Below are positions 13,443-45,840 of a DNA stretch of 64,000 nt, one piece after another. The notes under the pieces are model-generated. The model did no database searches. It was not told the DNA's origin and worked only from the letters and a program-made list of their open reading frames with translations. How positions within the stretch are numbered: the first letter of the stretch is position 1; each line of letters begins with the position of its first letter. The position numbers were made by a program, and so were the translations under genes. The DNA is from an uncultured Candidatus Saccharibacteria bacterium. Its GTDB lineage: Bacteria; Patescibacteriota; Minisyncoccia; Phycocordibacterales; UBA2100. The stretch is from contig CAZELA010000001.1 of NCBI GenBank assembly GCA_964512835.1, positions 105,372-169,371 of the forward strand, given 5' to 3'.

Positions 13443-13455
13443 CGACCCTATATGA

Positions 13456-13492: not shown

Positions 13493-13507
13493 ACTTACTA
13501 CAACGCT

Positions 13508-17221: not shown

Positions 17222-17992
17222 GTGCCAGGCAGGAACATTCTCCATAACGAACCACCGTCGAAATCAGTAGCCGCGTACCTGAACAACGGCTCCCGAGCTT
17301 TCGTGGAGACGCGATGCGGCAAGGTGTTCTCGTACGACAACACCCGGCCCAAGGGCCAGCGGTTCAAGGAGGAGGCGCTTGGATTCCATCCGGGCTTCTT
17401 CATGCAGCCGGCGCTGAGCCGGCAGCTCGGCAACCCGGTCCTCACGGTGGACCCGGGTGAGTATCCGTTCACGGACTTCGAGAACCTCATGGAACTCAAG
17501 AGTCGAACGTACGAAGCGCTCACATTCTTCCTGCATTCGCTCAACATCGAGTTCGAGCCGGCAGATCGCGAGATGTATGCCCGCAAGGCGACGCATTTGC
17601 TGAAGGAGGACGCCGTTCGTGCGGAAGTCGAGCCAGTGCTCATCCGCAATCCGATGCCGCCGAACTTCGACACCACGTATGGTCCCAAGGAGGATCACGC
17701 GGGTCGCATTTTGCAGGCGATGATCGAGACCTGGCGTCCGGCCGATCCGAACGAACCGCGCGAATACGCAGTCTCGTTCCGTCGCGGCAAAAAGATCCAC
17801 GATCTTGCGCCGGGCGACGGCGCGTTGCTCGTCGATTATTTGCGAGCCCAGGGCATCGAGATCGTCGAGATCATGCAAACGCAGGAGATGGTGATCGTGA
17901 AGCTCACGGTCCAAGGCGCGAGCGATCTGTATGACGCGATTCACGCCACGTGCCACGTGGTCCTGCGCACGACCGGCACGGTCAAGGTCTGA
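17222..17992 (+). CDS. hypothetical protein (very high GC3 codon usage)
   Basis: GTG start with an AAAGGAGG RBS; composition is protein-like while the antisense ORF is Arg-rich; the stop is embedded in CTGATCTTTCAACTG. Confidence 0.6.
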   Translation: MPGRNILHNEPPSKSVAAYLNNGSRAFVETRCGKVFSYDNTRPKGQRFKEEALGFHPGFFMQPALSRQLGNPVLTVDPGEYPFTDFENLMELKSRTYEALTFFLHSLNIEFEPADREMYARKATHLLKEDAVRAEVEPVLIRNPMPPNFDTTYGPKEDHAGRILQAMIETWRPADPNEPREYAVSFRRGKKIHDLAPGDGALLVDYLRAQGIEIVEIMQTQEMVIVKLTVQGASDLYDAIHATCHVVLRTTGTVKV

Positions 17993-30988: not shown

Positions 30989-31050
30989 TTGACACTTCAC
31001 CTGTGCGACGGTAGCGTCGCCCGTAGCGACACTGTCGAATGTGGCAGGTC
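30989..31050 (+). promoter_or_regulatory. TTGACA -35 plus overlapping alternative hairpins upstream of 31068
   Basis: TTGACA at 30989; GCGACG-gtag-CGTCGC (31005-31020) overlaps GTCGC-ccgta-GCGAC (31016-31030). Confidence 0.3.
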
Positions 31051-31067
31051 GAACAGAGGAGGATCCG

Positions 31068-31418
31068 ATGAAGCGTTTACTCACTGCACTCCTCGGTCTC
31101 GGCACGTTCCTCGTGCTCGCGACCGATGCGTCTGCCGGCGGGTACCCCGGCTGCAACTGCTACAGGCCGCGTCCCGCGGTGCGGCAGTACTCGCCGCCGC
31201 CGCCTCGCCCCGCTCTCGTCTGTCAGACGCTGCGTATGGCGGATGCAGACTGGGCTGCCTGTCAGACCAAGTCCTGGTCGCTCTCGAGTAAGGACGAGCG
31301 GATCTGGACCCACAGCTACCGGTCGCAGGTCATCCAGGTCTGTCGACCCGCGGGGCATCCGAACCTCGGATATCGGGGCAAGGCGACGGGTGCGCAGTAC
31401 GTCGTGCGGTTCCAGTAG
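31068..31418 (+). CDS. small secreted cysteine-rich protein (6 Cys)
   Basis: AGGAGG RBS; signal peptide MKRLLTALLGLGTFLVLATDASA; high GC3. Confidence 0.6.
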   Translation: MKRLLTALLGLGTFLVLATDASAGGYPGCNCYRPRPAVRQYSPPPPRPALVCQTLRMADADWAACQTKSWSLSSKDERIWTHSYRSQVIQVCRPAGHPNLGYRGKATGAQYVVRFQ

Positions 31419-31439
31419 TTCATTCCGCGGATGCGGATA

Positions 31440-31483
31440 CAAAAAAGGCGGCAACACTCGTGTGTTGCCGCCGATCTTTTTAT
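31440..31483. terminator. bidirectional terminator
   Basis: GGCGGCAACAC-tcg-TGTGTTGCCGCC, with AAAAAA upstream and GATCTTTTTAT downstream. Confidence 0.7.
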
Positions 31484-31494
31484 GCTGGTGCAGT

Positions 31495-32823: not shown

Positions 32824-33009
32824 AGACGTGTCGGGACTACACCATAAGCTGCTTTTTAAAGCAAGTTGTCCCCGAGGGCGTAAGGGCGTATCGTTGCCCC
32901 GGAAACGTGATGAGGCCCTCTCATGCGGCCTTCATCAAACCGGACGTAGTCTACGACCGGACAAGCGTTCGCTCTCATTTATTTAATTTCAGTAGTACCG
33001 CACCCTGTT

Positions 33010-34977
33010 ATGGCAGCTCAATCCCGCACGAAGGGAATCGGATTTTCATTTTTGCAGACACTCGGCACGGCGTTCATCGCGCTCGTGCTCTTCGGATTTG
33101 CGATGTTGCTTGTGATGCGCGCGAATGCGCAGTTTTCTATGAATGATTCGCATGGCATCGCGAAACTTTTTACCGCGCGCGCAGACGGCGGAGGCGGCGA
33201 CTCGGGCGGCGGTGGTGACTCAGGTGGTGGAGGAGACAGCGGCGGCGGAGGGGATTCCGGCGGCGGAGGGGATTCCGGCGGAGGCGGCGACTCGGGCGGC
33301 GGCGGTGACTCAGGTGGTGGAGGAGACAGCGGCGGCGGCGACGGCGGCGGTTGTTCAGGCTGTGGCTGCGGCGGCTTCTGCTACCCGCAGTGTCCGGCGG
33401 GAACGACCGGTGTGTATCCCATCTGCATTCCGCAGACATGCCCGGCAGGAACAACCGGCACGTACCCGAACTGCACAACCATTCAGTGTCCGGCGGGAAC
33501 AACCGGCACCTACCCGAATTGCACGACGCTGCATTGTCCTGAAGGAACAACCGGCACGTACCCGAACTGCACGACCATTCAGTGCCCGGCGGGAACCACC
33601 GGTACCTATCCGAACTGCACGACGATCCAATGCCCGGCGGGAACGACGGGAACCTACCCGAACTGCACGACGATCACATGCCCTGCAGGTACAACGGGAA
33701 CGTATCCGAATTGCACACCAAACACGGGATGCATCGACGTGCTGAAGGAAACGTACAACACGCTCGGTCTTCCGATCATGCCGGTTGCACAGTTCTCGTT
33801 TAAGCTCGATGGGGGAACGCAGACCGTGTTCAACAACTCTGCCGGTAACGCACGATTCACCGGCGTCTCGGTCGGTGCACACACCGTAACGGAAACTCCG
33901 GTTGCCGGATGGGCACTTATTTCCACGACGCCGCAGGGCGGCATCGTAAATGTGCTTGCTGGTTCGCAGTGCGTGACGGTTGTATTCAAAAACAAGCAGG
34001 TTATCAACGAATGCCCGGCAGGAACGACAGGCACGTACCCGAACTGCACGACCATTCAGTGCCCGGCGGGAACCACCGGTACCTATCCGAACTGCACGAC
34101 GATCCAATGCCCGGCGGGAACGACGGGAACGTATCCGAATTGTGTTTCTATCCAGTGTCCGTCGGGTACAACGGGAACGTATCCTAATTGCGTCTCGATC
34201 CAATGTCCGGCAGGAACATACGGCACGTACCCGAACTGCATCCAAATCCTGTGCCCGGCCGGGTCAACCGGCACGTACCCGAACTGCTACACGCAGCAGT
34301 GTCCGGCAGGGACGTACGGAACCTATCCGAACTGCTACACGCAGCAGTGTCCGTCGGGAACCACCGGGACGTACCCGAATTGTTACTCGCAGCAGTGCCC
34401 CGCAGGAACCTACGGAACCTACCCGAACTGCGTCCAGATCTTGTGTCCTGCAGGTTCAACGGGAACCTACCCGAACTGCCTCACGCCGCAGGCTCCGTAC
34501 TGCACACTGACCGCAAACCCGACATTCGTTTCGCACGGTCAGAGCTCAACGCTGTTCTGGTCGTCGCAGAATGCGATCAACGCGCAGCTCTCATCGTTCG
34601 GAACGGTCGGTGTGAACGGCTCGACGAACGTATCGCCGTACCAGACGACGACGTACACACTCACCGTGTGGAACAATCAGGGCCAGCAGGCAACCTGCCA
34701 GACGACGGTGCAGTTGAACTATCAGCCGCCGTATAATCCGCCGACCTACTACCCGCCGCAGCCTCCGACGATTTATCCGCCGATCACGTACTACCCGCCG
34801 AGCATTCCCGTTTCAAACATCCCGTACACGGGAACGGGTTCGACGACCGGCAACGTGATCCTCATGAGTCTCATCGTTCTTGCATCAATCTCCGGTGCAT
34901 ACTTGATTCTGTACTCACGGGGCGGTGCACGGAACATGCTTGTCGAAGCGGGCATCCTGCAAACCTCGCGACTCTAG
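33010..34977 (+). CDS. repetitive cell-surface protein: (GGGGDS)x8 linker, 17 copies of a 16-aa CPAGTTGTYPNCTTIQ repeat, and a C-terminal IPYTG sorting signal
   Basis: N-terminal TM/signal; repeats read directly; C-terminal IPYTGTG + hydrophobic helix + YSRGG tail; adjacent to the sortase gene. Confidence 0.8.
   Translation: MAAQSRTKGIGFSFLQTLGTAFIALVLFGFAMLLVMRANAQFSMNDSHGIAKLFTARADGGGGDSGGGGDSGGGGDSGGGGDSGGGGDSGGGGDSGGGGDSGGGGDSGGGDGGGCSGCGCGGFCYPQCPAGTTGVYPICIPQTCPAGTTGTYPNCTTIQCPAGTTGTYPNCTTLHCPEGTTGTYPNCTTIQCPAGTTGTYPNCTTIQCPAGTTGTYPNCTTITCPAGTTGTYPNCTPNTGCIDVLKETYNTLGLPIMPVAQFSFKLDGGTQTVFNNSAGNARFTGVSVGAHTVTETPVAGWALISTTPQGGIVNVLAGSQCVTVVFKNKQVINECPAGTTGTYPNCTTIQCPAGTTGTYPNCTTIQCPAGTTGTYPNCVSIQCPSGTTGTYPNCVSIQCPAGTYGTYPNCIQILCPAGSTGTYPNCYTQQCPAGTYGTYPNCYTQQCPSGTTGTYPNCYSQQCPAGTYGTYPNCVQILCPAGSTGTYPNCLTPQAPYCTLTANPTFVSHGQSSTLFWSSQNAINAQLSSFGTVGVNGSTNVSPYQTTTYTLTVWNNQGQQATCQTTVQLNYQPPYNPPTYYPPQPPTIYPPITYYPPSIPVSNIPYTGTGSTTGNVILMSLIVLASISGAYLILYSRGGARNMLVEAGILQTSRL
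33187..33342 (+). repeat. 18-bp tandem repeat encoding (GGGGDS)n
   Basis: About 8.5 imperfect copies of ggcggNggNggNgaYtcN. Confidence 0.8.
33391..33729 (+). repeat. 48-bp tandem repeat array 1 (7 copies, CPAGTTGTYPNCTTIQ module)
   Basis: In-frame coding repeats. Confidence 0.8.
34012..34491 (+). repeat. 48-bp tandem repeat array 2 (10 copies of the same module, more diverged)
   Basis: In-frame coding repeats. Confidence 0.8.
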
Positions 34978-35044
34978 GCAAACCTGCCGCTTTCCGAAAA
35001 GGGAAGCGGCTTTTGCTTTGAGCGGATCGTCTGCTTGACAGCCT

Positions 35045-35072
35045 TGACAAATGTGTCGTAATGGCTTATAAT
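35045..35072 (+). promoter_or_regulatory. consensus sigma70 promoter TTGACA-16-TATAAT (second TTGACA copy at 35035)
   Basis: ccTTGACAaatgtgtcgtaatggctTATAATatggctATG; the first ATG overlaps the -10, so the transcript is probably leaderless from ATG 35079. Confidence 0.6.
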
Positions 35073-35822
35073 ATGGCTATGAATAAGGGTTTTCACCCCA
35101 AAGAGACAGGAAATAAGCCCCCGTTCGCCGTGTACCTCTCGGTGACGGTGATTCTGTTTGTGCTCACCCTTTCCGTTGCCGACTCCATCGGTCTCGTGCC
35201 CGACTACATCGACGGTACTCAGTCAGAACACATGGCAGTATCGGATTCACAGTCGAATTCTCCGGATGGTGATTGGAGCGAATTCGATCAGTCAGTCTCG
35301 GTTTCAAATCTGCCTGAGCTCGGCGAAGCGGTGTCGGCACCGACTCCCGTCGTAGAGCAGCAGCACTCAGCGGCGCTTTCGAAGCCGACGAAGATCCTGA
35401 TCCCGGCGATCGATATGAATCTTCCGGTACAGAATCCGTCGACCCGCGATCTCTCTGCGCTCGATACGCTGTTGCAGAAAGGTCCGGCTCGATACGTCGA
35501 TTCCGCAAAGCTTAACGAGCGGGGAAACGTCATCATCTTTGCTCACTCGTCGCATCTTCCCGTCGTACACAACCAGATGTACAAGGCGTTCAATCGTGTG
35601 CCTGAGCTCGTAAAGGGTGACACCATCACGCTCGTGGGAGACGACGGTCAAAAGTATCTCTACAGCGTGACATCGGTCCGAAAGGCGGATGCAAATGATG
35701 CAACGATCGACCTGTCTCCGCTCCACGGCACAAAGCTCACACTCGTCACGTGCGACACGCTCACGGGCAAAAGCGCACGCTTCATCTTAGAAGCAGACTT
35801 TATCGGCACCGTCGACCTGTAA
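35061..35822 (+). CDS. sortase (transpeptidase), membrane-anchored
   Basis: N-terminal TM; IFAHSSH His motif; TLVTCDTL catalytic Cys motif near the C-terminus; KILIPAIDMNLPV start of the beta-barrel; likely true start 35079 (MNKGF). Confidence 0.8.
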   Translation: MAYNMAMNKGFHPKETGNKPPFAVYLSVTVILFVLTLSVADSIGLVPDYIDGTQSEHMAVSDSQSNSPDGDWSEFDQSVSVSNLPELGEAVSAPTPVVEQQHSAALSKPTKILIPAIDMNLPVQNPSTRDLSALDTLLQKGPARYVDSAKLNERGNVIIFAHSSHLPVVHNQMYKAFNRVPELVKGDTITLVGDDGQKYLYSVTSVRKADANDATIDLSPLHGTKLTLVTCDTLTGKSARFILEADFIGTVDL

Positions 35823-35840: not shown

Positions 35841-36467
35841 ATGAAAAATCTCACCATCGCATTCGTAACCGTTTTCGCGCTCGCACTTCCTGCAATTGCA
35901 GATGCCGCATCGTATCCGACGGGTGGCTCGTACCGGACCGGTGTCTCGGCTCAGACCGGGGTACCGTGCTACTACGGCGGCTCTGCATTCACCGGCAGTT
36001 CCTATGCGACCGGAGTCTCGTATGACACAGGGGATTCGTATTCAACGGGATCGTCCTATCAGACCGGCTACTCCTATCCGACCGGTATGTCTGCCGGCCC
36101 GGTGGGCACGTCGTACACAACTGGTGTCTCTGCCGGCCGTGTCGGCACATCGTATGCGGTCGGTGTTTCGTACCCGACCGGATACTCCATGGCAACCGGC
36201 TCATCGGTTCCGACCGGATACTCGAGCGCAACATCACACCCGAAGGGAACGAAGTACGGTACACCAAACTACGCACAGTATTCGTATCCGAACTACTACA
36301 ACGAAACGCCTACGTACATGCAGGACTACACCGGCTACATGTATAACTCGTACTACCCGCAGCAGAATCAGTACACGGAGACTGTGGGTGGCATGGGCTA
36401 CGCGTACATGAACACCGCGCACTACGCATACGATCAGGTGACTGGTGTCTACTACATCAGCTACTAA
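35841..36467 (+). CDS. secreted Tyr/Gly/Ser/Thr-rich low-complexity protein
   Basis: Signal peptide; (S/T)Y.TG(V/Y)S repeats; Y-rich C-terminus; 18 nt after the sortase stop. Confidence 0.55.
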   Translation: MKNLTIAFVTVFALALPAIADAASYPTGGSYRTGVSAQTGVPCYYGGSAFTGSSYATGVSYDTGDSYSTGSSYQTGYSYPTGMSAGPVGTSYTTGVSAGRVGTSYAVGVSYPTGYSMATGSSVPTGYSSATSHPKGTKYGTPNYAQYSYPNYYNETPTYMQDYTGYMYNSYYPQQNQYTETVGGMGYAYMNTAHYAYDQVTGVYYISY

Positions 36468-36539: not shown

Positions 36540-37007
36540 ATGCCCGATCCGGATACCTCGGCTCAACCGGGGAAGGTGAAGCTATTCTTTCGCGGGTGCC
36601 GCACCGTCATTGGTGCGGTCTCGTGGGTGATTCCGTTTGTCATCATGGGAGGTGCGTACTACCTCTTCCCGGCGCTACGAGTCAACATTACATTCGACGG
36701 CAACGTGCCGCACGAAGTCGCGTGGGGACTCCTGGCATCACTTGCCTCCGTCGGTGTTTGGCTCGGCTACGAGATGTGGTTTGCGGTCAGTCGCAAGACA
36801 TCGGTCGGCCAACTCCAGGCTGACGGACTCATCAGCACCTTCTTTGCTATCGTGCTGACGGGCATCGGCGTACGCTGGGCGACACTTGGCACCTTGCCAT
36901 ATTGGTTCGTGCTGCCGTGGATCGGCACACTCATCGATGCGCTCGGCTCCGGGTTCCTCGCCATCAACAACGCCGCCCAGAAGCCGATCATCCAGCAGGA
37001 CCGCTAG
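36540..37007 (+). CDS. hypothetical membrane protein (4 TM)
   Basis: AAAGGGGG RBS before ATG 36540; start trimmed. Confidence 0.55.
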   Translation: MPDPDTSAQPGKVKLFFRGCRTVIGAVSWVIPFVIMGGAYYLFPALRVNITFDGNVPHEVAWGLLASLASVGVWLGYEMWFAVSRKTSVGQLQADGLISTFFAIVLTGIGVRWATLGTLPYWFVLPWIGTLIDALGSGFLAINNAAQKPIIQQDR

Positions 37008-37030
37008 GGTCGATCACGCACTTTTACGAA

Positions 37031-37072
37031 TAAGCGCCGCAGACAAAGCGGCGCTTATTTATTTGCTATTTT
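37031..37072 (+). terminator. rho-independent terminator
   Basis: TAAGCGCCGC-agacaaa-GCGGCGCTTA followed by TTTATTTGCTATTTTC. Confidence 0.7.
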
Positions 37073-37097
37073 CATGAAAAGGGGGTTAGAGAATCAT

Positions 37098-37128
37098 TTG
37101 ACAAATGCGTCAAATGTGATAGTATATT
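37098..37128 (+). promoter_or_regulatory. sigma70 promoter TTGACAAA-N16-TAGTAT(ATT)
   Basis: TTGACAaatgcgtcaaatgtgaTAGTATatt. Confidence 0.55.
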
Positions 37129-37188
37129 AGCGGTTAATCAACCGTCCCGCCAATTCCGGTCGGGTCCATGCCAAACAGGAGTTATCCC

Positions 37189-38109
37189 ATGGCAATCGAA
37201 GTCATCGCACGCGGCAAGATCCACGCCGGCAAGAAAAGCGGCAACAACTTCCGCTTTCAGCCCGGCAGGACGCAGGGTATCGGCAAAACCGCCAATCAGA
37301 CCCTGTTCCGCTCGCTGACGTACGTTCGCGGCACGATCGCCGGGACCGACGACGGCTCGTTCAAGTACGGTGCGGTGATGGGACCCAACCAGGTGGTGTC
37401 GGGATCGGGTAATCACGCGATCCTCGATCCCAACTCCAAGGTCATCCCGGTCGTTGCGAGCAACGACACGCAGCTCGTGCCGATCCGGAAGTTCTACACG
37501 CCGGAGGAGCTCAAGAAGCCGCATCACCAGCGCGTCGCCAAGACGTTCATCGACTGGGCATCGTTCCAGTCGCAGCAGAACGGCGAGGCCAGCCTCGTGA
37601 AGTATCTCGGCAACAACACGGTGAACGTCGAGATCTGGACCGGCCTGTTCGAGAAGATGACCGAGGAAATGTACCAGCTCATCTTCGGGCTGGAGCATGG
37701 ATCGATCAACTACTCGGGCAGCAAGACTGTCGCCAGGGCCAAGAAGAAGTTGGTCGTCGACGAAACTGCGCCGGAAGGCGAGGCGATCGTCGAGGCGAAG
37801 GCGAAGTTCTCGGCCAACCTCGTGCTCGAGGATCACGCGACCGTCGTCAACAACAACGACGTCCCGCTCTGGTCCGTGCGTACGTGGGAGATCGAGTACT
37901 CGCCCGGCGACAGCGCGATCGTGCTGGTGCGTCACTTCGACGCGTTCTACGTCGTCGAAGTGAAGAAGGGCGAAGAGCTCGTCATCACCAAGTACACCGA
38001 CAAGGACGCCGCGGTCTGGAAGCGTCGCTTCCTCAAGGACTGGTCGGCGGCGCTCGCGGCGGAACGCACGAAGGCGGAAATCGACGCCAAGCTCGCTTCG
38101 GCAGCCTGA
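37189..38109 (+). CDS. hypothetical protein, 306 aa, no signal peptide, very high GC3 / expression-optimised codons
   Basis: AGGAG RBS; strong promoter and terminator; the stop is embedded in CTGATCTTTCAACTG. Confidence 0.65.
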   Translation: MAIEVIARGKIHAGKKSGNNFRFQPGRTQGIGKTANQTLFRSLTYVRGTIAGTDDGSFKYGAVMGPNQVVSGSGNHAILDPNSKVIPVVASNDTQLVPIRKFYTPEELKKPHHQRVAKTFIDWASFQSQQNGEASLVKYLGNNTVNVEIWTGLFEKMTEEMYQLIFGLEHGSINYSGSKTVARAKKKLVVDETAPEGEAIVEAKAKFSANLVLEDHATVVNNNDVPLWSVRTWEIEYSPGDSAIVLVRHFDAFYVVEVKKGEELVITKYTDKDAAVWKRRFLKDWSAALAAERTKAEIDAKLASAA

Positions 38110-38133
38110 TCTTTCAACTGGGTCTATGACCCG

Positions 38134-38172
38134 CGCGCGGCAGTGTGAACTGCCGCGCGTTTTCTATTTTTT
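38134..38172 (+). terminator. rho-independent terminator of the hairpin-TTTTCTAT type
   Basis: CGCGCGGCAG-tgtgaa-CTGCCGCGCG followed by TTTTCTATTTTTT. Confidence 0.75.
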
Positions 38173-38190
38173 GTAAGCTATCATGAATGC

Positions 38191-40323
38191 ATGTCCGCAG
38201 AGGGCCCTCAGGAACCCAAACAAAGCTGGGAGAAAGTTCGATTACTGAAAACGAATGCGGGGCTGCTTTGGTATCGCACAAAAACGGGCGAAGTGGTCGT
38301 TCTCGACGATGCCGCAGAAATGGAGCGTGACCGACAGAACGATGAACCGGGCACTCCGCCGCAGGAAGGTTATCCGGAATTTTCCGGGCGTATCGGTACC
38401 GAGGAGTTGCCGGTTACCGACGCAAATGAGATTGAGCAGAAACGCGCCGACCTCCATACGCTCGTCAATAACCTCGTCGATATTTCTACCGACTTGCGTA
38501 CGAACCTGGTGGAAGAGATCGTTGCCGCGGAGGACGACGGCGACCTCGAAGCAATTCGGCAGGGTATTGATCAATTGCTGAAAGACAAGCGCGATGCAGC
38601 GCGAGCGGCAGGTTCGGCTGCAGGACCCGCCGGTGGTGCGGCAGGGGGAGCAGCGGGCGCGGGTGCACAGACTGTGGACCAGCTGTACGACGAAACGAAG
38701 CAGAAGCACAAAGATAAGACCGCGCGTAAGCGCGCGATGCAGCGTGCGGAGCGCGATGCGATAGCGGAGCTCGATGCCGAAGAATCGGCTGCGAATCCGC
38801 TTGTGCCGAAGACTGACGACGAGGTCTTTACCGATATAGAAAAAGCAGAGGCCGATAGACTCTCCAAGCGGGATCTTGAGGATCGTGCAAAGAAAAAGGC
38901 AAAAGATGCATTCGATGCCGCGAAGGCCGCGGCACGCGTGCAGGCTGAGCAGGACGCTCAAGCAGAGAATGCGGCGAAGGTTGCGGCTGAGTTAGCGTTG
39001 GACAAGGATTACTACAACGCCCGGTTCGATAACCTCCGGCTCCACGGCATCATAGATGACACGAACGCAGTTTTTGCGCAGGACGAGGTCGCGAACGCGC
39101 AGACGAGCGAAGCGCTACGCGAGCGGTTTGATACGGAGCTCCAGGGATTAGAGTCGCGACTGCCCGAAAACCCTGCGCCGCCGGATCATGGGATCAACGC
39201 TGTCCGCAATGATACGGAATTTGCACAAATGACCGTCGAAGCGATACGCAACATCGAAGCGGTGATCGCGGTGGGCGGCAATGCAAACAGTTTGTACCAG
39301 CGGTACCGCAAACGTCTCCGTGCAGGCGATTTGAAACAGTTCGATACGAGTCTTGCACGACGCGAGAAACTGACGGGCAAACAGTTCGGTATTGATTACC
39401 GCACTATGACTCCGGCAGAGCGATTGCGAATCATGAATCCGCCCCCTGGCTTTGCAAACAGATACACGGCTAACGGTCGGATTGATCGCATCTGGATGGC
39501 GCACGATTCTGCGAAATATAAAGATCTCGTGCCGTTTTCGATGGAGGAGATACGAACGGACGATAAGAAAAAGGTCCTCTACGACCGCTTTATGAAAGCG
39601 ATCGAATACGATAATTCGCTCAAAGCCACAGTCGAGGCGGGGCAACCGTTTGATGATGCACAGCGGCAACTGCAGGAGTATTCGCAGTATGAGTTCACGT
39701 ATCAGTACAAACGTGCCGAAGTGTTGAGCGAGATGTTCACGCCGGAATTCACGAAAAAGCTCATTTATCAGAATGAATTTGTGAACTCGATCGCGGTCAT
39801 GTACGGCGTCGAGAAAACAGCCGCATTTTTGAAAGACGACGTGTTTCGTATCGCGGTTGAAGATCTCGGAACCTTTGATCGGCTCGCGCTTGCGGCCTCG
39901 CGCCTCCAGCATCTGGGTAGTGGACGATTCACAGCGATGAGTCGGGGTGAAGAGCAATTCGACATGGCTGAGATTTTTGAAACGCGGCTTCGCGATGCGG
40001 ATATACAAACCGCCATTCAGAAGGAGGCTGCGACCGGTACGAAGACGGTGGAGATGCTACCGCCCGCAAAAGAAATGAAAGACGAATTTTCTGCGGCGAA
40101 CCTGCAGAAATATTTCGACCGCGACAAAATGAAGGCAAAGATCGGCGACCGGGGCTGGGACAAGTGGACTGCGGCGGAGCGCGCAGACTTTAAGCGCAAG
40201 TGGGAGCCGGAAGAGGTCGTTAAGCGACGCGAACACAAAGAAGCGGGGCTCTACGCGCAGCTGAAGGCGGTTCTTATGGAGTCACTGTTCGGAGAGCAAA
40301 AGAAGCAGGTGAAGGCTCACTAA
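38191..40323 (+). CDS. large acidic hypothetical protein (710 aa), coiled-coil rich, Ala/Gly-rich linker
   Basis: Long ORF with protein-like composition; no TM; no recognised domain. Confidence 0.6.
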   Translation: MSAEGPQEPKQSWEKVRLLKTNAGLLWYRTKTGEVVVLDDAAEMERDRQNDEPGTPPQEGYPEFSGRIGTEELPVTDANEIEQKRADLHTLVNNLVDISTDLRTNLVEEIVAAEDDGDLEAIRQGIDQLLKDKRDAARAAGSAAGPAGGAAGGAAGAGAQTVDQLYDETKQKHKDKTARKRAMQRAERDAIAELDAEESAANPLVPKTDDEVFTDIEKAEADRLSKRDLEDRAKKKAKDAFDAAKAAARVQAEQDAQAENAAKVAAELALDKDYYNARFDNLRLHGIIDDTNAVFAQDEVANAQTSEALRERFDTELQGLESRLPENPAPPDHGINAVRNDTEFAQMTVEAIRNIEAVIAVGGNANSLYQRYRKRLRAGDLKQFDTSLARREKLTGKQFGIDYRTMTPAERLRIMNPPPGFANRYTANGRIDRIWMAHDSAKYKDLVPFSMEEIRTDDKKKVLYDRFMKAIEYDNSLKATVEAGQPFDDAQRQLQEYSQYEFTYQYKRAEVLSEMFTPEFTKKLIYQNEFVNSIAVMYGVEKTAAFLKDDVFRIAVEDLGTFDRLALAASRLQHLGSGRFTAMSRGEEQFDMAEIFETRLRDADIQTAIQKEAATGTKTVEMLPPAKEMKDEFSAANLQKYFDRDKMKAKIGDRGWDKWTAAERADFKRKWEPEEVVKRREHKEAGLYAQLKAVLMESLFGEQKKQVKAH

Positions 40324-40325
40324 GT

Positions 40326-40538
40326 ATGGACGAAAACGACATCAAGGAAATCGTACAGAAATTCGAAGCGACCGTACCGCCGGGGGATGATGAGGCGGCG
40401 CGCGTGTTTTTTGAAGAAGTGTTCCCGAATTTCTCGCAGGATTTGAAAGACGCGTTTTTGCGCGAGGCACTCGTGAGCGCCATCGAGCAATCCGCCGAAG
40501 AACTCATGGCGGGGCGAAAGGGTGATTCCGAGGCTTGA
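40326..40538 (+). CDS. small acidic hypothetical protein (70 aa), translationally coupled
   Basis: ATG lies 2 nt after the upstream TAA; its stop TGA lies inside the downstream TTGACA. Confidence 0.45.
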   Translation: MDENDIKEIVQKFEATVPPGDDEAARVFFEEVFPNFSQDLKDAFLREALVSAIEQSAEELMAGRKGDSEA

Positions 40539-40626
40539 CAGAGCCGTATTTTTATGAATTAATATTGCCGGCATCCGATCGGAGGATCGGTATAGTCGTA
40601 GTACGAACAAACCTGCGGAGGGCACC

Positions 40627-41508
40627 ATGGCGGACATCGCCGCGGCGCTTGCCGCTTTCACGCTCGCTCTATGGTCGCTCGGTATCGTGCTCATGAGCAC
40701 GGTGTATCAAGAGACCGGTGTACTGCTTGCGGCACTCGGGTTTCTGACCGGAGTGATGCACGCGATACTGCAATGGCGATCGGCGAACTCGGAATCGCAA
40801 CTTCAACCTGAACGTACAGAAAGGAATGAAACCATGACTGCACCCGAAGCTTCGGCTGCACAGCCGGTCCACATTCACCCGATGGTGGGGAAGGAGAGTC
40901 ACTTCGTCGCGTGGGTCGGATTCTTTTCGACCCTGTTGGTGAGCTTGCTCATCTTCTCGATCCTGACCGGCAACTGGATCCCGCCGACGTTCGCCATCGG
41001 TGACGCGTCGGTCGGCCCGGAGACGTACATCCCGATCATGGCGATGATCGTCTATCACTACCAGGTCAAGGTCTCGCTCGAACGTCCGGACACGCTCTTC
41101 TACGCGTGGCTGGATCTCATCGGCTCCGTGCTTCCGTTCGCGATCGCATTCATCGCGATCATGTCGTGGTTCCCGGCGGTCCGTTGGATCTTGGAGACCA
41201 TGCGGCTCTGGATCACGCCGTACACCACGCTGACACTGGTGACCGCCGGCACGTATCTCATCCTCTCGGCATGGGACGTGTTCTGGAATCACTGGCGTCG
41301 GTCGCGTGTGTTTGGGCATGGCGGCGGCGCGAGCAATGCGTTCATCGATGATGTCATCATCGGGCAGGGGGTCTCGCGCAAGCGCGTCATGCCGCTCGAG
41401 ATCATCTGGGAACCGCAGCACTTCGTGCAGCAGCCCGACGGCACGCTTCGTCGCGTGCAGCCCGAGCTGATCGAGCAGCAGACCGGTCCGGCGCCGGAGA
41501 CCCACTAA
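40627..41508 (+). CDS. hypothetical polytopic membrane protein (high GC3)
   Basis: GGAGGG RBS; 6-7 TM; flanked by the split halves of the 5757 hairpin. Confidence 0.6.
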   Translation: MADIAAALAAFTLALWSLGIVLMSTVYQETGVLLAALGFLTGVMHAILQWRSANSESQLQPERTERNETMTAPEASAAQPVHIHPMVGKESHFVAWVGFFSTLLVSLLIFSILTGNWIPPTFAIGDASVGPETYIPIMAMIVYHYQVKVSLERPDTLFYAWLDLIGSVLPFAIAFIAIMSWFPAVRWILETMRLWITPYTTLTLVTAGTYLILSAWDVFWNHWRRSRVFGHGGGASNAFIDDVIIGQGVSRKRVMPLEIIWEPQHFVQQPDGTLRRVQPELIEQQTGPAPETH

Positions 41509-41536
41509 ATACGGCTCTACGACGAGCTCTTTCGAC

Positions 41537-41572
41537 CCGGCGGCACAGCGATGTGCCGCCGGTTTTCTATTT
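41537..41572 (+). terminator. rho-independent terminator of the hairpin-TTTTCTAT type, abutting a TTGACAAA promoter
   Basis: CCGGCGGCACA-gcga-TGTGCCGCCGG followed by TTTTCTATTTGACAAAAG. Confidence 0.75.
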
Positions 41573-41599
41573 GACAAAAGTGATTTTATATGATACTTT
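41571..41599 (+). promoter_or_regulatory. promoter TTGACAAA-N17-TACTTT
   Basis: TTGACAaaagtgattttatatgaTACTTT. Confidence 0.45.
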
Positions 41600-41659
41600 A
41601 TCTGCGGTCTCTTTCCGTACAGGAGAGGGTTTTACAGTCACACAAACATGGGAGGCGTA

Positions 41660-42301
41660 ATGGCCGCTCCGGTATCACCGGGATCGCGATGGCGTATCCC
41701 GATCGTCACACCGCAGCCGTATGTCGTGCCACCTCGGCCCGTGCATGCAGCTGCTCCGGTAGTTTCCAACCAACAGCCTTCCTCGCACGAAGATGCGCGT
41801 ATGCGCGGCTTCGAGGACGGCAGGGCATATCAACGAAATGGAGGTCAGAATATGTCTGCGAAGGCCGACGACCACGGACATCACGGCAGCGGTCCGCCCG
41901 AGGGGGTAAAAAAGGCCCTCTGGTGGATCGGGGTGATCCTGATTGCGTTCCTGTTGTTCAATTGGTTCACGACCGCCTGGGATCGGTTCACCGATCCTGT
42001 CGGCTTCCGCGCCAATGAACAGCAGCGCGTGATCGACGATCTGAAGGATCGTCTGCGCGCGTACCAAAGCGGCGATGTCGGTCCGAGCCCTCGCGGTGGC
42101 ACGGGCGGCAACATCTCGCGGCTCGGAAACAACAATGCGCCTCGTCAACCGACGGCACAGGAGATCTGGGATCGTACGTTCCATCGCACGACCAGTACCT
42201 GCGCCCCGTGCGATCAGACCAGGGGATGGAATTACATCCAGGACCCCGAAACCTGTCAGTGCGATGCGGCTCGGTGGCGGCCTGGTCCGCCCCCGCGCTA
42301 A
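41660..42301 (+). CDS. single-pass membrane protein with a C-terminal Cys4 domain (CAPCDQTRGWNYIQDPETCQCD), paralog A
   Basis: GGGAGG RBS before ATG 41660; central TM helix; the last 34 aa are identical to 42482..42979. Confidence 0.6.
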   Translation: MAAPVSPGSRWRIPIVTPQPYVVPPRPVHAAAPVVSNQQPSSHEDARMRGFEDGRAYQRNGGQNMSAKADDHGHHGSGPPEGVKKALWWIGVILIAFLLFNWFTTAWDRFTDPVGFRANEQQRVIDDLKDRLRAYQSGDVGPSPRGGTGGNISRLGNNNAPRQPTAQEIWDRTFHRTTSTCAPCDQTRGWNYIQDPETCQCDAARWRPGPPPR

Positions 42302-42342
42302 GTGATCTTTCGTCCTCAAATCGAAACAATTGCGGGGACATG

Positions 42343-42375
42343 CAGACGGCTAGCGATAGCCGTCTGTTTCTTTTG
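42343..42375 (+). terminator. rho-independent terminator
   Basis: CAGACGGCTA-gcga-TAGCCGTCTG followed by TTTCTTTTG. Confidence 0.7.
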
Positions 42376-42381
42376 TAGCCC

Positions 42382-42409
42382 TTGACAAAAAGGGTAAATA
42401 TGGTAATAT
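42382..42409 (+). promoter_or_regulatory. promoter TTGACAAA-N16-TGGTAATAT
   Basis: TTGACAaaaagggtaaataTGGTAATAT. Confidence 0.55.
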
Positions 42410-42481
42410 TCTCATTAGAAGGGAGGTACCATTCGGTGCTTTCCGCTTCACATCACACAATTACAGAAAGAGGAGTGGCCA

Positions 42482-42979
42482 ATGAACAGGCTTATCGTTG
42501 CTCTCTGTGCGATTGCGTTCTTCGCATTCGCATCGCTCGGCACGGCGTCCGCGCAATACGGAGCCGGTGTCGGCACCGGCGGTACCATGGCTCTTCGCCA
42601 GGGCGTTCCGCATGCCCAGACTGTCTACGAGGACCAATGTCGGCGCATCGGTGCATATAACCATCCGATGTGCATGACCGGTCAGCGTCGTGGTCACGGC
42701 CATGGTGTTCAGGGCCGTCGCGTGATCCCGGTTTTCGCGACCGGCGCACACTACGACCGTCGCGTGGCAGCTGGGCACTACGGCCGCACAGCCGTGGTTC
42801 GCCCCGTGGCACCCCCGCCGCCCCCGCCTTCGGCACAGCAGATCTACTCTGCAGTGCCGCACAAGACGGTCAGCGTCTGCGCCCCGTGCGATCAGACCAG
42901 GGGATGGAATTACATCCAGGACCCCGAAACCTGTCAGTGCGATGCGGCTCGGTGGCGGCCTGGTCCGCCCCCGCGCTAA
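42482..42979 (+). CDS. secreted protein with a C-terminal Cys4 domain, paralog B
   Basis: AAGAGGAG RBS; signal peptide; His/Arg/Gly-rich middle; Pro7 linker; identical C-terminal 34 aa. Confidence 0.65.
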   Translation: MNRLIVALCAIAFFAFASLGTASAQYGAGVGTGGTMALRQGVPHAQTVYEDQCRRIGAYNHPMCMTGQRRGHGHGVQGRRVIPVFATGAHYDRRVAAGHYGRTAVVRPVAPPPPPPSAQQIYSAVPHKTVSVCAPCDQTRGWNYIQDPETCQCDAARWRPGPPPR

Positions 42980-43019
42980 GTGATCTTTCGTCCTCAAATC
43001 GAAACAATTGCGGGGACAT

Positions 43020-43052
43020 GCAGACGGCTAGCGATAGCCGTCTGTTTCTTTT
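43020..43052 (+). terminator. rho-independent terminator (duplicate of 42343)
   Basis: Same hairpin within repeat copy 2. Confidence 0.7.
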
Positions 43053-43059
43053 GTAGCCC

Positions 43060-43087
43060 TTGACAAAAGGGGTAAATATGTTAATAT
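43060..43087 (+). promoter_or_regulatory. promoter TTGACAAA-N16-TGTTAATAT (duplicate)
   Basis: Within repeat copy 2. Confidence 0.55.
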
Positions 43088-43147
43088 GGCAGAGGAAGGT
43101 AATCACATCCGTGATCTACCCGAAATGGCAACCATCGGAGGAATACC

Positions 43148-43537
43148 ATGCAGATTCGTATCGCCCTTGCCCTCGTGCTCGCTCTCGCCACGACCTCGGT
43201 CTACGCTCAGGCGCCCAAGAGCTACAATCCGGGACGTGTCGAGGTCGCTGCTCCTCAGCAGCAGGTGCCGCCCGCGATCGCGAAGGCGAACGCCCAAGCT
43301 GCTCCCGCTGCTCCCGCTGCTCCCGCTGCGCCGGCCCCCAAGGTCGACCGCGCCGAGGAAGCTCGCCAGGAGATCGCGCAGTGGCACAAGGCCCGCAAGG
43401 ACTGCTACAACGCGCTCGGCCTCAAGGAAGGTGTGCACTATCGTCTGAATCCGGCGGATGCGAACAACTACCAGGTGCTGAAGCAAGCGCACTTGATGTT
43501 CAACTCGGCCGGCATCACGAAGTGCGACGCCATCTGA
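43148..43537 (+). CDS. small secreted protein (129 aa, 2 Cys, PAA repeats)
   Basis: GGAGG RBS; signal peptide; high GC3; the stop is inside CTGATCTTTCA. Confidence 0.6.
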   Translation: MQIRIALALVLALATTSVYAQAPKSYNPGRVEVAAPQQQVPPAIAKANAQAAPAAPAAPAAPAPKVDRAEEARQEIAQWHKARKDCYNALGLKEGVHYRLNPADANNYQVLKQAHLMFNSAGITKCDAI

Positions 43538-43552
43538 TCTTTCACTACCGGA

Positions 43553-43630
43553 GGGGTGTGTCGGCAACGACACACCCCACCACACTTCTCGTTGAGATCT
43601 CTGTGTCCGCGTACAACGTGCACACAGAGA
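43553..43630 (+). terminator. two consecutive stable hairpins (no clean U-tract)
   Basis: GGGGTGTGTCG-gcaa-CGACACACCCC, then TCTCTGTGT-15 nt-ACACAGAGA. Confidence 0.4.
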
Positions 43631-43668
43631 CCCCAGTGAGGGTCGGATAGCACACAAGGGAGCAATCA

Positions 43669-44172
43669 ATGCGTGCGATCAAAAATGTTCTTTGCGTCGT
43701 TGCTCTTGCGCTGTTCAGCCTCACCTCCATGGTGAACGCCGCATGCGTCGAGCAATCAAAGCGGGGCCCGTTGCCCAGTGGATACGAACCTGTGCGGATC
43801 GTGTTCGCTGCGGCACAGGACGATCGCGTGTCGGATGACACGAAGGAATCGACCCTGCGCTTCCTTGTCGACGGCCTCGTTCGCGTGGCATTCGACAAAC
43901 TCGGACACGTCAAACAGGTCCATCAGTGCAGCTTCGGAAATGGGTCTGTGCTGAAGAATCAGACGTTCGTCCAGGTCCGGTACGTCAAAGTGCCGGGGAA
44001 TGATGATCTGATTCACGGGGAATCGTGGATCGGCCTGCCGAAACAGGCGATCGCGTCTAAACCGAATGTGGGCGTCGAGCTCACCTCGGGCACCGAACTC
44101 AAGGGTGTCTGGGGGAGGTCGAATGCTCACGGCCGTGAGGTCGCGACCATCACCATCAGTCCGGTCGACTGA
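43669..44172 (+). CDS. hypothetical secreted protein (167 aa)
   Basis: AAGGGAG RBS; signal peptide MRAIKNVLCVVALALFSLTSMVNA. Confidence 0.6.
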   Translation: MRAIKNVLCVVALALFSLTSMVNAACVEQSKRGPLPSGYEPVRIVFAAAQDDRVSDDTKESTLRFLVDGLVRVAFDKLGHVKQVHQCSFGNGSVLKNQTFVQVRYVKVPGNDDLIHGESWIGLPKQAIASKPNVGVELTSGTELKGVWGRSNAHGREVATITISPVD

Positions 44173-44197
44173 TTTGACCAACGGCCGAAACCATTGT

Positions 44198-44241
44198 GCG
44201 GGAGGGCAAAGTCGTGTACTTTTGCCCCCCGCATTTTCTAT
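44198..44241 (+). terminator. rho-independent terminator of the hairpin-TTTTCTAT type
   Basis: GCGGGAGGGCAAA-9 nt-TTTGCCCCCCGC followed by ATTTTCTAT. Confidence 0.7.
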
Positions 44242-44250
44242 AAGAATTGC

Positions 44251-44279
44251 TTGACAAACTAGGAATCGTGTGGTAATAT
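44251..44279 (+). promoter_or_regulatory. promoter TTGACAAA-N17-TGGTAATAT
   Basis: TTGACAaactaggaatcgtgTGGTAATAT. Confidence 0.55.
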
Positions 44280-44340
44280 AAACGGGTCGAAAATTATTCA
44301 CTTTTTATTGGAGATTTAGAAGACGTTAAACAAAAAAGTT

Positions 44341-45840
44341 ATGACAAATGTATCGAAAAACATGCTCTTTGCCTTCTTGGTCGCCGTAAGTGCAACAGTG
44401 CTTTCATTGGGTGCATTTGCCACGACTGTTCACGCAGCTGACTTCGACGGAGGTTCCTTCGACGGAGGCGGCTGGTACGACGCCGGCTCATTCGGCGGCG
44501 GTGGTTTCTACGACGCGGGTTCGTACTCCGGTTCCGACTGGTACGATGCCGGTTCGTACAACAATGGCGGTTTCTACGACGCGGGTTCGTACAGCGGCGA
44601 TTTCTACGACGCTGGCTCACAGAACAGCGGTTGGTATGACGCCGGTTCACCGAATGGCGGCTGGTACGATGCCTCGACCGGTTACTGGGAGACTGACTCG
44701 TACAATCCGGGCTACTATGAAAAGGATTCGTACAACCCTGGGTATTATGAGACTGACTCCTACAATCCTGGTTACTACGAAACTGATTCGTACAACCCTG
44801 GTACCTATCAGACTGATTCGTACGTAAGCTCGTACATGGATCAGTACGCAGCAGGCAACCCGATCATGTCGGGCGGCAGCTACGGAGGTGGTTCGTACGG
44901 CGGTGGCTACACCACCGGCGGTGGGTACAGCATGCCGAGCATCAGCACCGGCGGCTGCACGACCTGCCACTCACAGAGCTACCCGAAGCCTGTTCCGACT
45001 CCGGTCTGCACAACCTGCAATCATCCAGTCCCGACTCCGACCTGCACGACCTGCGGCGGATCAAGCGTGACTAACACGAACATGTGGATCGATAACTCGA
45101 TCATCGACAACTCGATCAACGGTTCGTTCAACACCACGATCAAGGACAGCTACAACACGACCATGCTTACTCCGGTCGTACCGCAGCAGCCGATCGTGTA
45201 CACCCAGCCGGCACCGTACTGTGTGATCACCTTGCAGAATGCGGGTGCATACACGGCACAGGCAACGCTCGTATGGTCCTCGACGAATGCACAGTCCGCG
45301 TACATTACGCAGGTGGGTTCTGTAGCTCCGAACGGCACTCGAGTTGTTACCGGCTTCGCGAATCAGATGTACTCGCTCACGGTTACCGGTCAGGGCGGCA
45401 CCTACACGTGCAATACCCAGCCGTACACCCCGACGTACATCCCGCAGGCTCCGATCACACCGTCTGTCTCGCTCACGCAGATCCCGTACACGGGTCTCGC
45501 ACTGAGCCCGATGGCACAGGCGATGTACTGGCTCGCGCTCCTCTCGGTCGCAGCAGCAGGTGGTTACTTGCTCGTCTACTACAAGGGAGGCGCACTTGCT
45601 CTCGCAGGTGCAATGAACCGCCTGACTGCGCAGGCAGGCCGACAGAATCACTTCGTCGTCTCTGAACAGGAGACCGAGGAAGTGATTACTCCGGAAGCAG
45701 TTGAGACCGAAGAGGTCGCAGCTCCGACCGTAGACGCAATGAGCTTCCTCCCTGCGATGCAGGAAATGAAGACCCGAGATGTCATGTCGGTCATGCACTC
45801 GGAAGACGGAACCCCGCGACTCGTCATCGCACGCGCGTAA
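44341..45840 (+). CDS. secreted repeat protein with an IPYTG sorting-signal-like segment, a TM helix and an about 80-aa C-terminal tail
   Basis: Signal peptide; (F/W)YDAGS and DSYNPGYYET repeats; Cys/Pro/Thr spacer (CTTC x3); a domain alignable to the C-terminal domain of 33010..34977; TQIPYTGLALSP + TM + YYKGG. Confidence 0.75.
   Translation: MTNVSKNMLFAFLVAVSATVLSLGAFATTVHAADFDGGSFDGGGWYDAGSFGGGGFYDAGSYSGSDWYDAGSYNNGGFYDAGSYSGDFYDAGSQNSGWYDAGSPNGGWYDASTGYWETDSYNPGYYEKDSYNPGYYETDSYNPGYYETDSYNPGTYQTDSYVSSYMDQYAAGNPIMSGGSYGGGSYGGGYTTGGGYSMPSISTGGCTTCHSQSYPKPVPTPVCTTCNHPVPTPTCTTCGGSSVTNTNMWIDNSIIDNSINGSFNTTIKDSYNTTMLTPVVPQQPIVYTQPAPYCVITLQNAGAYTAQATLVWSSTNAQSAYITQVGSVAPNGTRVVTGFANQMYSLTVTGQGGTYTCNTQPYTPTYIPQAPITPSVSLTQIPYTGLALSPMAQAMYWLALLSVAAAGGYLLVYYKGGALALAGAMNRLTAQAGRQNHFVVSEQETEEVITPEAVETEEVAAPTVDAMSFLPAMQEMKTRDVMSVMHSEDGTPRLVIARA
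44452..44821 (+). repeat. in-frame tandem repeats (about 21-24 bp YDAGS units, then 30-bp DSYNPGYYET units)
   Basis: Read directly from the sequence and its translation. Confidence 0.7.

Follow-up and report, generated by a model that had tools for sequence, protein, structure and literature searches.

The 64,000-nucleotide (nt) stretch of DNA analysed here (hereafter the window; positions 105,372 to 169,371 of contig CAZELA010000001.1, assembly GCA_964512835.1, from an uncultured Candidatus Saccharibacteria bacterium) carries at 37,031 to 44,290 a block of genes for which the initial annotation considered two readings: a horizontally acquired island of surface or secreted-protein cassettes, or a set of native, extremely highly expressed envelope genes. 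Comparison with related contigs shows that the block belongs to a native cell-envelope locus, vertically inherited and lineage-specific, in a candidate phyla radiation (CPR; Paceibacterota) bacterium. As had been proposed, it appears to form a coherent unit of separately transcribed, unannotatable envelope genes, and this unit is larger than was stated, extending over ~28.6-45.9 kilobases (kb) from gyrB to thrS. Most of our interpretation concerns a 306-amino acid (aa) orphan protein encoded at 37189..38109 and the large coiled-coil protein encoded directly downstream of it. Genes are named below by their start coordinates, and all features of the locus given with coordinates lie on the + strand.

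The window has a GC content of 56%, and its content is like that of other small genomes: in 64 kb it encodes L25, L31, S2, EF-Ts, a release factor, PheRS-beta, GyrB, ThrRS, DnaE and SMC, and an Rfam scan matched a single element, a tRNA at 16337. Codon statistics were computed on the 68 genes of the window, and our statements on expression level rest on codon bias together with promoter and terminator sequence signals.

A native locus between gyrB and thrS

The related contigs compared were L005 (497 kb), L008, L010, L011, L012, L013, L014, L016, L018, L019 and L021. Starting from gyrB, envelope genes come first, then sortase and the genes for a secreted repeat protein of ~210 aa and a membrane protein of ~155 aa. 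The 306-aa gene and a gene of 586-710 aa are next, followed by one of 70-100 aa and by those for a polytopic membrane protein, small secreted proteins and a repeat protein of ~500 aa; thrS, on the opposite strand, closes the series. The whole gyrB...thrS interval recurs in this order in L005, L008, L010 and L012, and in part, as far as the contigs reach, in L011, L013, L014, L016, L018, L019 and L021. In L018, which represents a distant subfamily (~32% identity), the family member ends in AAVAA; upstream of it lie a sortase, a secreted repeat protein and a membrane protein, and downstream a terminator, the sequence TATCAT and a large protein whose N-domain motif is the same. A synteny check had been suggested for finding out whether the block is variable; it found conserved order, which the initial annotation itself had named as speaking against an island, and the island reading is refuted for this reason.

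The block is also ordinary in composition. Its tetranucleotide distance, suggested earlier as a sign of deviation, ranks 21 among 57 windows of the same size, its dinucleotide delta* lies under the window mean, and its GC of 0.53-0.61 is as elsewhere in the window. Pfam/NCBIfam-type scans of the block matched no integrase or transposase family; no tRNA flanks it, the only one being that at 16337, and the sole long repeat is internal. An island could still appeal to the raised GC content at synonymous third codon positions (GC3s) of 37189 and, mildly, of 40627 and 43148, as well as to the lack of database families among the products. Against the conserved position and order, the ordinary signature, the missing mobility genes and the codon adaptation and retained GC3s of 37189 described below, we find such an origin scarcely credible.

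Apart from the 306-, 710- and 70-aa proteins, every product encoded between 28.6 and 45.8 kb carries a signal peptide or a membrane segment, in agreement with the earlier description of mostly small, secreted or membrane-bound proteins. Searches of the block products against Pfam, PHROGs, NCBIfam and PADLOC found no family apart from the sortase; weak VEGF_C, Rz-like, DedD and PTS matches were all under their cut-offs and were discarded. The claim that the products have no recognisable homologs is thus correct for these databases, but orthologs are present in related CPR genomes. Some of the genes turn over quickly: identity to L008 is 27-34% for the small secreted proteins, which are unrecognisable in L005, compared with 87% for ThrRS and 73% for sortase. 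Three genes at 31041-34977, encoding a 125-aa secreted protein, a 442-aa polytopic ICMT-like protein and a 655-aa substrate, are missing from L010 and L012; L005 has all three.

Codon usage and transcription signals

Very high third-position GC had been ascribed to five genes of the block and two elsewhere, and the codon usage was said to be unlike that of the housekeeping genes. Over the 68 genes, mean GC3s is 0.663 (standard deviation 0.065). The first claim holds strongly for 37189, a clear outlier (GC3s 0.878, z = 3.3; effective number of codons 34), while 40627, 43148, 17222 and 31041 (GC3s 0.77-0.79, z ~1.6-1.9) are at the high end of normal and 41660 (0.66) and 42482 (0.68) are ordinary. 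The second is not supported: with S2, EF-Ts, L25, L31 and the release factor as reference set, the codon adaptation index of 37189 ranks 2 of 68 for adaptation to translation genes, ahead of most of the reference genes and strongest among the non-reference genes. The remaining block genes rank from 12 to 63, and extremely high expression is therefore suggested by sequence signals for 37189 only. At its two-fold sites, 37189 pushes the preferences of the translation genes (NNC, AAG, CAG) further.

Orthologs of 37189 in L005, L008, L010 and L011 have GC3s of 0.80-0.84 irrespective of local background; in L011, the gene adjoining the ortholog has GC3s of 0.35. The distant L018 member has a GC3s of 0.75, yet this is the highest among its four neighbours. 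Synonymous sites must be saturated at 48% protein identity, and because the orthologs keep high GC3s despite this, the high GC3s of 37189 appears to be maintained rather than a relic of transfer. We infer that it reflects selected codon bias and not foreign origin. For genome scans this carries a caution, namely that very high GC3 combined with a 'hypothetical' annotation is not evidence of foreign origin.

Judging from promoter and terminator signals, the description of the block as separately transcribed cassettes was broadly right. Exact TTGACAAA occurs six times in the 64 kb, always on the + strand (35044, 37098, 41571, 42382, 43060 and 44251), where ~2.1 copies are expected; 2 of 100 shuffles reached this count. 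A promoter with this sequence precedes 37189, 41660, 42482, 43148 and 44341, that is, five of the seven genes to which such near-consensus promoters had been assigned, plus the sortase gene, which lies outside the range named at that time; 40627 has TTGACAGA instead, and 43669 has none. Sites of the form TTGACA-N15-19-TAnnnT are concentrated in the same region, 9 of the 11 in the window falling within 30.9-44.3 kb (binomial P = 3e-5), as do all six with an extended -10. Exact TGGTAATAT is found at two promoters, 42382 and 44251; the promoter at 43060 reads TGTTAATAT and that at 37098 reads TGATAGTAT. TTGACA promoters stand at matching positions in L008, where several junctions have nearly the same sequence.

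The promoter of the 306-aa gene (37098..37125; TTGACA-16-TAGTAT with the TG of an extended -10) is kept in seven lineages and, estimated from the -10 position, gives a 5' untranslated region (5'UTR) of ~55-60 nt. A palindrome, TTGACAAATGCGTCAA (37098-37113; TTGACAATCCTGTCAA in L005), overlaps its -35 and spacer and is conserved in six of the seven lineages; the other block promoters are without it. This palindrome could be an operator for a dimeric regulator.

Each gene was also said to be followed by a strong hairpin with a common U-tract. All terminator hairpins are strong (-20 to -28 kcal/mol, z -4.6 to -5.9 vs shuffled sequence), and three copies of TTTTCTAT lie directly 3' of such hairpins (38160, 41563 and 44234); this sequence has six copies in the window against 1.0 expected, a count that none of 100 shuffles reached. 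However, the terminators at 42342 and 43020 finish with TTTCTTTTG, and the hairpin after 43148 has no U-tract. We considered TTTTCTAT as a functional motif and rejected it, since L008 has TTTCCTAT at two of the matching sites and a different sequence at the third, so that TTTTCTAT would be merely the shape of a terminator tail.

Along the locus, an intrinsic terminator hairpin ends the sortase operon (37028..37060, -21.7 kcal/mol), and a hairpin followed by TTTTCTAT stands after the 306-aa gene (38133..38167, -25.6 kcal/mol). The promoter of the 293-aa gene (TTGACAGA..., 40535..40563) is nearly identical in L008. At 41537..41599 a compact terminator/promoter junction consists of a hairpin, TTTTCTAT, one base and the promoter TTGACAAAA...TGATACTTT, and at 44198..44279 a hairpin (-24.7 kcal/mol) is followed by TTTTCTAT and the promoter TTGACAAAC-...-TGGTAATAT. 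These signals suggest eight or so transcription units: sortase with 35841 and 36540; 37189; 38191 with 40326; 40627; 41660; 42482; 43148 with 43669, the latter probably co-transcribed with the former; and 44341.

The 306-aa protein, its partner and their alleles

As noted initially, the 306-aa protein has no signal peptide; nor has it a membrane segment. It is basic (isoelectric point (pI) 9.0), with a polar, basic N-terminus, MAIEVIARGKIHAGKKSGNNFRF, and contains no Cys. In the family as a whole Cys amounts to 0.29%, vs 1.08% in the window proteome, and several cytoplasmic proteins of the window likewise have no Cys. Its AlphaFold2 (AF2) model is mostly beta with a 35-residue C-terminal helix (predicted local distance difference test (pLDDT) 67, predicted template modelling score 0.64), and its core is well conserved over the whole length among relatives. 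These relatives are few: 13 close ones among 5.8 billion sequences, 26 clusters in an exhaustive profile search of 1.84 billion representative proteins, and at least one distant member, P0022, in a wide-alignment search, whose contig was too short for comparison; a scan of genome contigs gave two loci and a scan of metagenomes one useful locus, L018. One relative bears the name Candidatus Pacebacteria. Pfam matched none of 22 family members, the 306-aa protein matched no sequence family, solved structure or viral structure, the phage records and viral contigs searched held no relatives, and literature searches found no description of the family. The locus is therefore built around an undescribed protein family. 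The capsid-, encapsulin- and pilin-like identities suggested for 37189 find no fold or sequence similarity to lean on, and no class III signal. An antisense open reading frame at 37138-37935 was rejected as a gene, because high GC3 makes it an artefact. From its codon bias and transcription signals, we infer that the product of 37189 is among the most abundant proteins of the cell.

The family has a conserved Ala-Ala C-terminus (codons 38101-38106 in 37189), found in 33 of 37 members down to ~22% identity and usually placed after small or hydrophobic residues. The ending resembles ssrA-type C-terminal degrons (...LAA-COOH), which are recognised by ClpX and other AAA+ proteases. The ssrA tag, however, is added by tmRNA, while here the genome itself encodes the ending, and the protein that bears it is full-length and apparently abundant.

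The constant downstream partner of the 306-aa gene encodes a 710-aa acidic, all-alpha coiled-coil protein (38191..40323). In all eight relatives where the start could be read, L018 included, the family member is followed by a large protein with an N-domain of the form WY..VVLD..GYP.FS. The N-domain (aa 1-135, 38191-38595), conserved among relatives, is followed by an Ala/Gly linker (38596-38667), a predicted 76-residue helix (aa 209-284) and a C-terminal hydrophobic/amphipathic segment (40249-40290) in which a hydrophobic and aromatic cluster precedes basic residues. A search with the 710-aa protein found four proteins; the partner relatives have the N-domain and the C-terminal tail in common, their middle and C-terminal regions being largely unrelated. 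A -10-like TATCAT (38179..38184) lies 6 nt 5' of the ATG, with no Shine-Dalgarno sequence, and may be a weak promoter for a leaderless transcript; TATCAT or TACCAT is found 6-9 nt 5' of the partner ATG in L008, L010, L011 and L018. The 710-aa gene is thus a second candidate, after the sortase gene discussed below, for a leaderless transcript, or might be translated from read-through past the terminator of the 306-aa gene. Its stop is followed after 2 nt by the ATG of a 70-aa acidic helical protein (40326..40538; pI 4.1), 72% identical in L008.

What ties the two proteins together is the comparison of L010 with L012, two independent assemblies whose flanking DNA is 97-100% identical on both sides and whose sortases are 99% identical. 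Over ~1.7 kb, from the upstream terminator to about codon 155 of the partner, DNA identity falls to 37-75%; the 306-aa proteins are 52% and the partner N-domains 34% identical, and near identity resumes past the linker. The L012 allele belongs to the class of the window (306-aa protein 76%, N-domain 67% identical). In this one pair, promoter, 306-aa gene and partner N-domain have been replaced as one cassette by homologous recombination between strains, and because they are replaced together as a matched cassette, we expect that a 306-aa protein has to match the N-domain of its partner. Relative to L014, the 306-aa gene has a rate of nonsynonymous substitution (dN) of 0.128 and its upstream neighbour one of 0.028, with similar synonymous rates (dS); dS of the partner gene is saturated, and for this reason the locus appears mosaic in this comparison too. 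Among L011, L019 and L021, the sole DNA similarity found by blastn is the 306-aa gene and the start of the partner, which fits a unit with its own history, although stronger constraint could explain it too.

Matched replacement with sharp boundaries, and the fast evolution of the 306-aa protein, might also suggest a polymorphic effector/immunity- or toxin/antidote-like pair made up of the 306-aa gene and the partner N-domain and acting in a parasitic host interaction. In known polymorphic toxins it is the C-terminal end that varies; here the variable part is the N-terminal end of a large protein, and the 306-aa core is well conserved over its whole length. Extreme codon bias points to bulk abundance, unusual for effectors, and neither Pfam, PADLOC nor NCBIfam gave a toxin, immunity or defence family. 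The episymbiont life of CPR bacteria speaks for such a pair, as does the high expression of unknown extracellular proteins in Paceibacteria (PMC10936435). On balance we hold this explanation to be quite improbable.

We are inclined, with only a modest leaning, to a different reading, in which the native, sortase-bracketed envelope locus provides an abundant 306-aa structural subunit and a cognate 710-aa adaptor, encoded in part by an allele cassette. The sortase and two IPYTG repeat proteins bracket a run of small secreted and membrane proteins. The genes would be expressed from short units, each starting at a sigma-70 promoter close to consensus, frequently of the extended -10 type, and closed by a strong intrinsic terminator; in this compact genome the U-tract of the terminator would abut the next -35. 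The 306-aa protein, presumably made at a very high level as its conserved strong promoter, own terminator and top non-reference codon adaptation suggest, would be a structural subunit present in large amounts and docking on the N-domain of its 710-aa coiled-coil partner. The partner would be fixed to the cytoplasmic side of the membrane through its C-terminal hydrophobic/amphipathic helix. The Ala-Ala C-terminus might then act as a docking peptide, or perhaps as an ssrA-like degron clearing unassembled subunits, and the matched cassette of promoter, 306-aa gene and N-domain would be exchanged between strains by homologous recombination.

Several observations weigh against this proposal. The AF2 models are of moderate confidence only for the 306-aa protein and poor for the 710-aa protein (pLDDT 52). 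Allele replacement is known from one pair of metagenome contigs only, and the 306-aa protein and the N-domain co-vary imperfectly, since in L008 the N-domain is class-A-like and the 306-aa protein divergent. Four-fold sites of 37189 shun GCA, GTA and GGT, all of which the ribosomal-protein and translation genes favour; since the two-fold sites agree with these genes and the four-fold sites depart, the codon bias appears native in direction with an extra pull towards G/C, and part of the GC3 excess may be due to something else, for instance biased gene conversion or mRNA stability. Finally, fast evolution and allele replacement are more typical of exposed than of cytoplasmic proteins, and yet there is no export signal. 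As to the location of the 306-aa protein, then, the former favour exposure, whereas the cytoplasmic face is the likelier place for a protein that, like its partner, has no export signal.

Let us consider, therefore, that the 306-aa protein might be an exported surface subunit, forming an S-layer-like lattice or a fibre and leaving the cell by an unrecognised non-Sec route, with the 710-aa, 70-aa, polytopic 293-aa or 155-aa proteins as pilot, chaperone and channel, and with phages or host cells selecting the alleles. The sequence signals of 37189 match the gene layout of S-layer proteins and flagellins: it appears monocistronic, with a strong conserved promoter, a long 5'UTR, its own strong terminator and top codon bias, and it is set among envelope genes beside the sortase in those relatives whose contigs reach that flank. 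Fast protein evolution with allele replacement would be accounted for, the small acidic helical neighbour resembles a secretion chaperone, and the family is depleted in Cys, although the same lack of Cys is seen in several cytoplasmic proteins of the window. The protein itself has neither a signal peptide nor a membrane segment, and it contains no sorting motif and no domain known to anchor proteins to the wall; S-layer tests found no Sec signal, no type I signal with ABC/MFP genes in the locus and no SLH or CWB2 domain (Pfam, NCBIfam), and a type IV pilin test found neither a class III signal nor a hydrophobic N-terminal helix. Family scans found no ATPase or recognisable secretion component in the locus, and the co-replaced partner domain sits in a protein without export signal. 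We thus regard an exported subunit as unlikely, while giving it some weight.

In Clostridioides difficile, the S-layer cassette with slpA and neighbouring genes is exchanged between strains, SlpA having a Sec signal peptide and CWB2 anchoring domains. The likeness to our locus would lie in a presumably very highly expressed structural-protein gene within an envelope cluster, a divergent allele block in near-identical genomes and recombination in conserved flanks; the 306-aa protein, in contrast, has no Sec signal, no CWB2 and no sequence or fold in common with SlpA, and the exchanged block here is ~1.7 kb. At the pilA/tfp locus of Pseudomonas aeruginosa, pilin allele groups go with cognate accessory genes, and flagellin has no Sec signal and a small acidic chaperone, FliS. 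A subunit gene with its own strong promoter and terminator, whose alleles are exchanged with a matching part of the neighbour, is arguably reminiscent of both, and the lack of a Sec signal and the small acidic neighbour of flagellin in particular; unlike pilins and flagellins, the 306-aa protein lacks both a class III signal and a hydrophobic N-terminus, and its predicted fold is mostly beta with one long C-terminal helix. No flagellar or type IV pilus machinery was found in the locus. To judge by its sequence, the 306-aa gene resembles S-layer, pilin and flagellin loci in behaviour and departs from them in export signal, anchoring domain and fold.

It might also be argued that there is no system here at all: a run of unrelated lineage-specific genes whose strong promoters and terminators only mirror the compact organisation of CPR genomes, a cytoplasmic 306-aa protein of unrelated function, and an assembly artefact behind the difference between L010 and L012. 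The sortase is indeed the sole gene with an established function, the small genes turn over quickly, and allele replacement is seen in one contig pair. But the micro-synteny holds down to ~32% identity, the 306-aa gene and the N-domain of its partner diverge within the same boundaries, consensus promoters cluster in the locus beyond chance, and a chimeric assembly would still need a very close relative with the other allele. We consider this explanation distinctly unlikely, and return to the proposed subunit and adaptor after describing the rest of the locus.

The sortase module and the small secreted genes

The sortase (35079..35822; Pfam PF04203, E = 1.7e-17) has the active-site motif TLVTC (nt 35739-35753). 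Its promoter, a perfect consensus TTGACA-17-TATAAT (35044..35072), stops 6 nt 5' of the ATG, with no Shine-Dalgarno sequence, and the mRNA is for this reason predicted to be leaderless. The spacing is kept in L005, L008, L010, L012 and L013, so that with the window six lineages have the arrangement. A longer reading frame starting at 35061 would begin inside the promoter, and the start was revised accordingly to 35079. The sortase gene is always followed by that of a 208-aa secreted Tyr/Gly/Ser-rich repeat protein (35841..36467), and then comes a 155-aa small membrane protein (36540..37007), the upstream neighbour of the 306-aa gene wherever that flank is readable. The 155-aa protein has BLAST-detectable orthologs in L010, L012, L013 and L014, and a small gene of similar size takes its position in L011, L018, L019 and L021. 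Its genetic linkage to the sortase in several lineages is perhaps comparable to that of SafA of Actinobacteria, a sortase-protecting membrane protein (PMC9282373).

Two repeat proteins are likely sortase substrates, because each ends with IPYTG, a hydrophobic segment and basic residues (R/K). The 655-aa protein (33010..34977; IPYTG at nt 34819-34833) has an N-terminal membrane/signal segment and a basic tail, is 79% identical to its ortholog in L005 and contains ~20 Cys-bounded 16-aa repeats (CPAGTTGTYPNCT) in two arrays (33400-34550). The 499-aa protein (44341..45840; IPYTG at 45481-45495) has a signal peptide and repeats, and its C-terminal region is homologous to that of the 655-aa protein. 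As in the housekeeping sortase loci of monoderms, there is a sortase with TLVTC, flanked by two proteins in which signal peptide and repeats are followed by an [I]PxTG motif, a hydrophobic segment and then a basic tail; the differences are that the motif is IPYTG rather than LPXTG, that the substrates have long C-terminal tails past the hydrophobic segment, and that three cytoplasmic-looking orphan proteins have no known counterpart in described sortase loci. By its sequence features, the sortase module is of an ordinary kind, a sortase with its likely substrates, whose sorting motif is the variant IPYTG.

Downstream of the 70-aa gene come a 293-aa polytopic membrane protein (40627..41508, GC3s 0.78) and two tandem paralogs, a 213-aa single-pass membrane protein (41660..42301) and a 165-aa secreted protein (42482..42979), with the same C-terminal 4-Cys module (42200-42301 and 42878-42979). 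These modules look like single related units of the CPAGTTGTYPNCT repeats of the 655-aa substrate. A start at 41852 for the 213-aa gene was rejected, the N-terminal MAAP region being conserved in L008. The 4-Cys coding part, the terminator and the following promoter form a 222-nt repeat whose second copy (42866..43087; terminator 43020-43045, promoter 43060-43087) is 97% identical to the first (42188..42409; terminator 42342-42367, promoter 42382-42409). L008 has the same paralog pair with a 251-nt repeat (7802-8052 and 8478-8728, 86% identity), and L012 has matching repeated segments at 12687-12867 and 13362-13532, spaced by ~675-676 nt; since copies in the same genome match each other better than their orthologs, gene conversion appears to act between them. 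In L004, a metagenome contig of the window's own population, one 678-bp unit is missing, through either a deletion polymorphism or an assembly collapse, and L001 stops inside the repeat.

The last small genes encode a 129-aa secreted protein (43148..43537, GC3s 0.78) and, 3' of it and without its own promoter, a 167-aa secreted protein (43669..44172). Between them lies a hairpin without U-tract (43550-43581, -28 kcal/mol), conserved in L008, which may act in processing or stabilisation instead of termination. The long 5'UTR of the 43148 gene (43094-43147) and those of both L008 paralogs (upstream of 8070 and 8705) have in common a Shine-Dalgarno-like GGAGG...CACATCCGTGA ~35-45 nt before the real start; as coding sequence this element shows no conservation, and it might stabilise the mRNA or serve as a standby site for ribosomes. 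Outside the envelope locus, the high-normal gene 17222..17992 encodes a 256-aa soluble hypothetical protein with a GTG start, a good Shine-Dalgarno sequence, GC3s of 0.785 and no Pfam family, and it overlaps the start of an MFS transporter gene by ~60 nt.

Lastly, we turn to what the locus would mean for these bacteria. CPR bacteria may account for a large share of bacterial diversity, ~25% by one estimate given in PMC11452946, and all cultivated ones live attached to other cells according to the account in PMC11623550. Most of their envelope proteins are unannotated, and the locus described here offers a concrete, rankable target among them. Going further, and tentatively, since we rate this wider proposal as possible but doubtful, the 306 family and its coiled-coil partner may be an undescribed structural system of one small CPR group: a bulk-abundant subunit with a new fold and an obligatory Ala-Ala end, which assembles on a membrane-tethered adaptor or is exported through it, and which strains exchange in a cassette with the matching adaptor domain under selection by phages or hosts. 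If the 306-aa protein does form a surface or cortical lattice, it would represent a new structural family, and phage or host specificity in this lineage would probably be determined in part by it.

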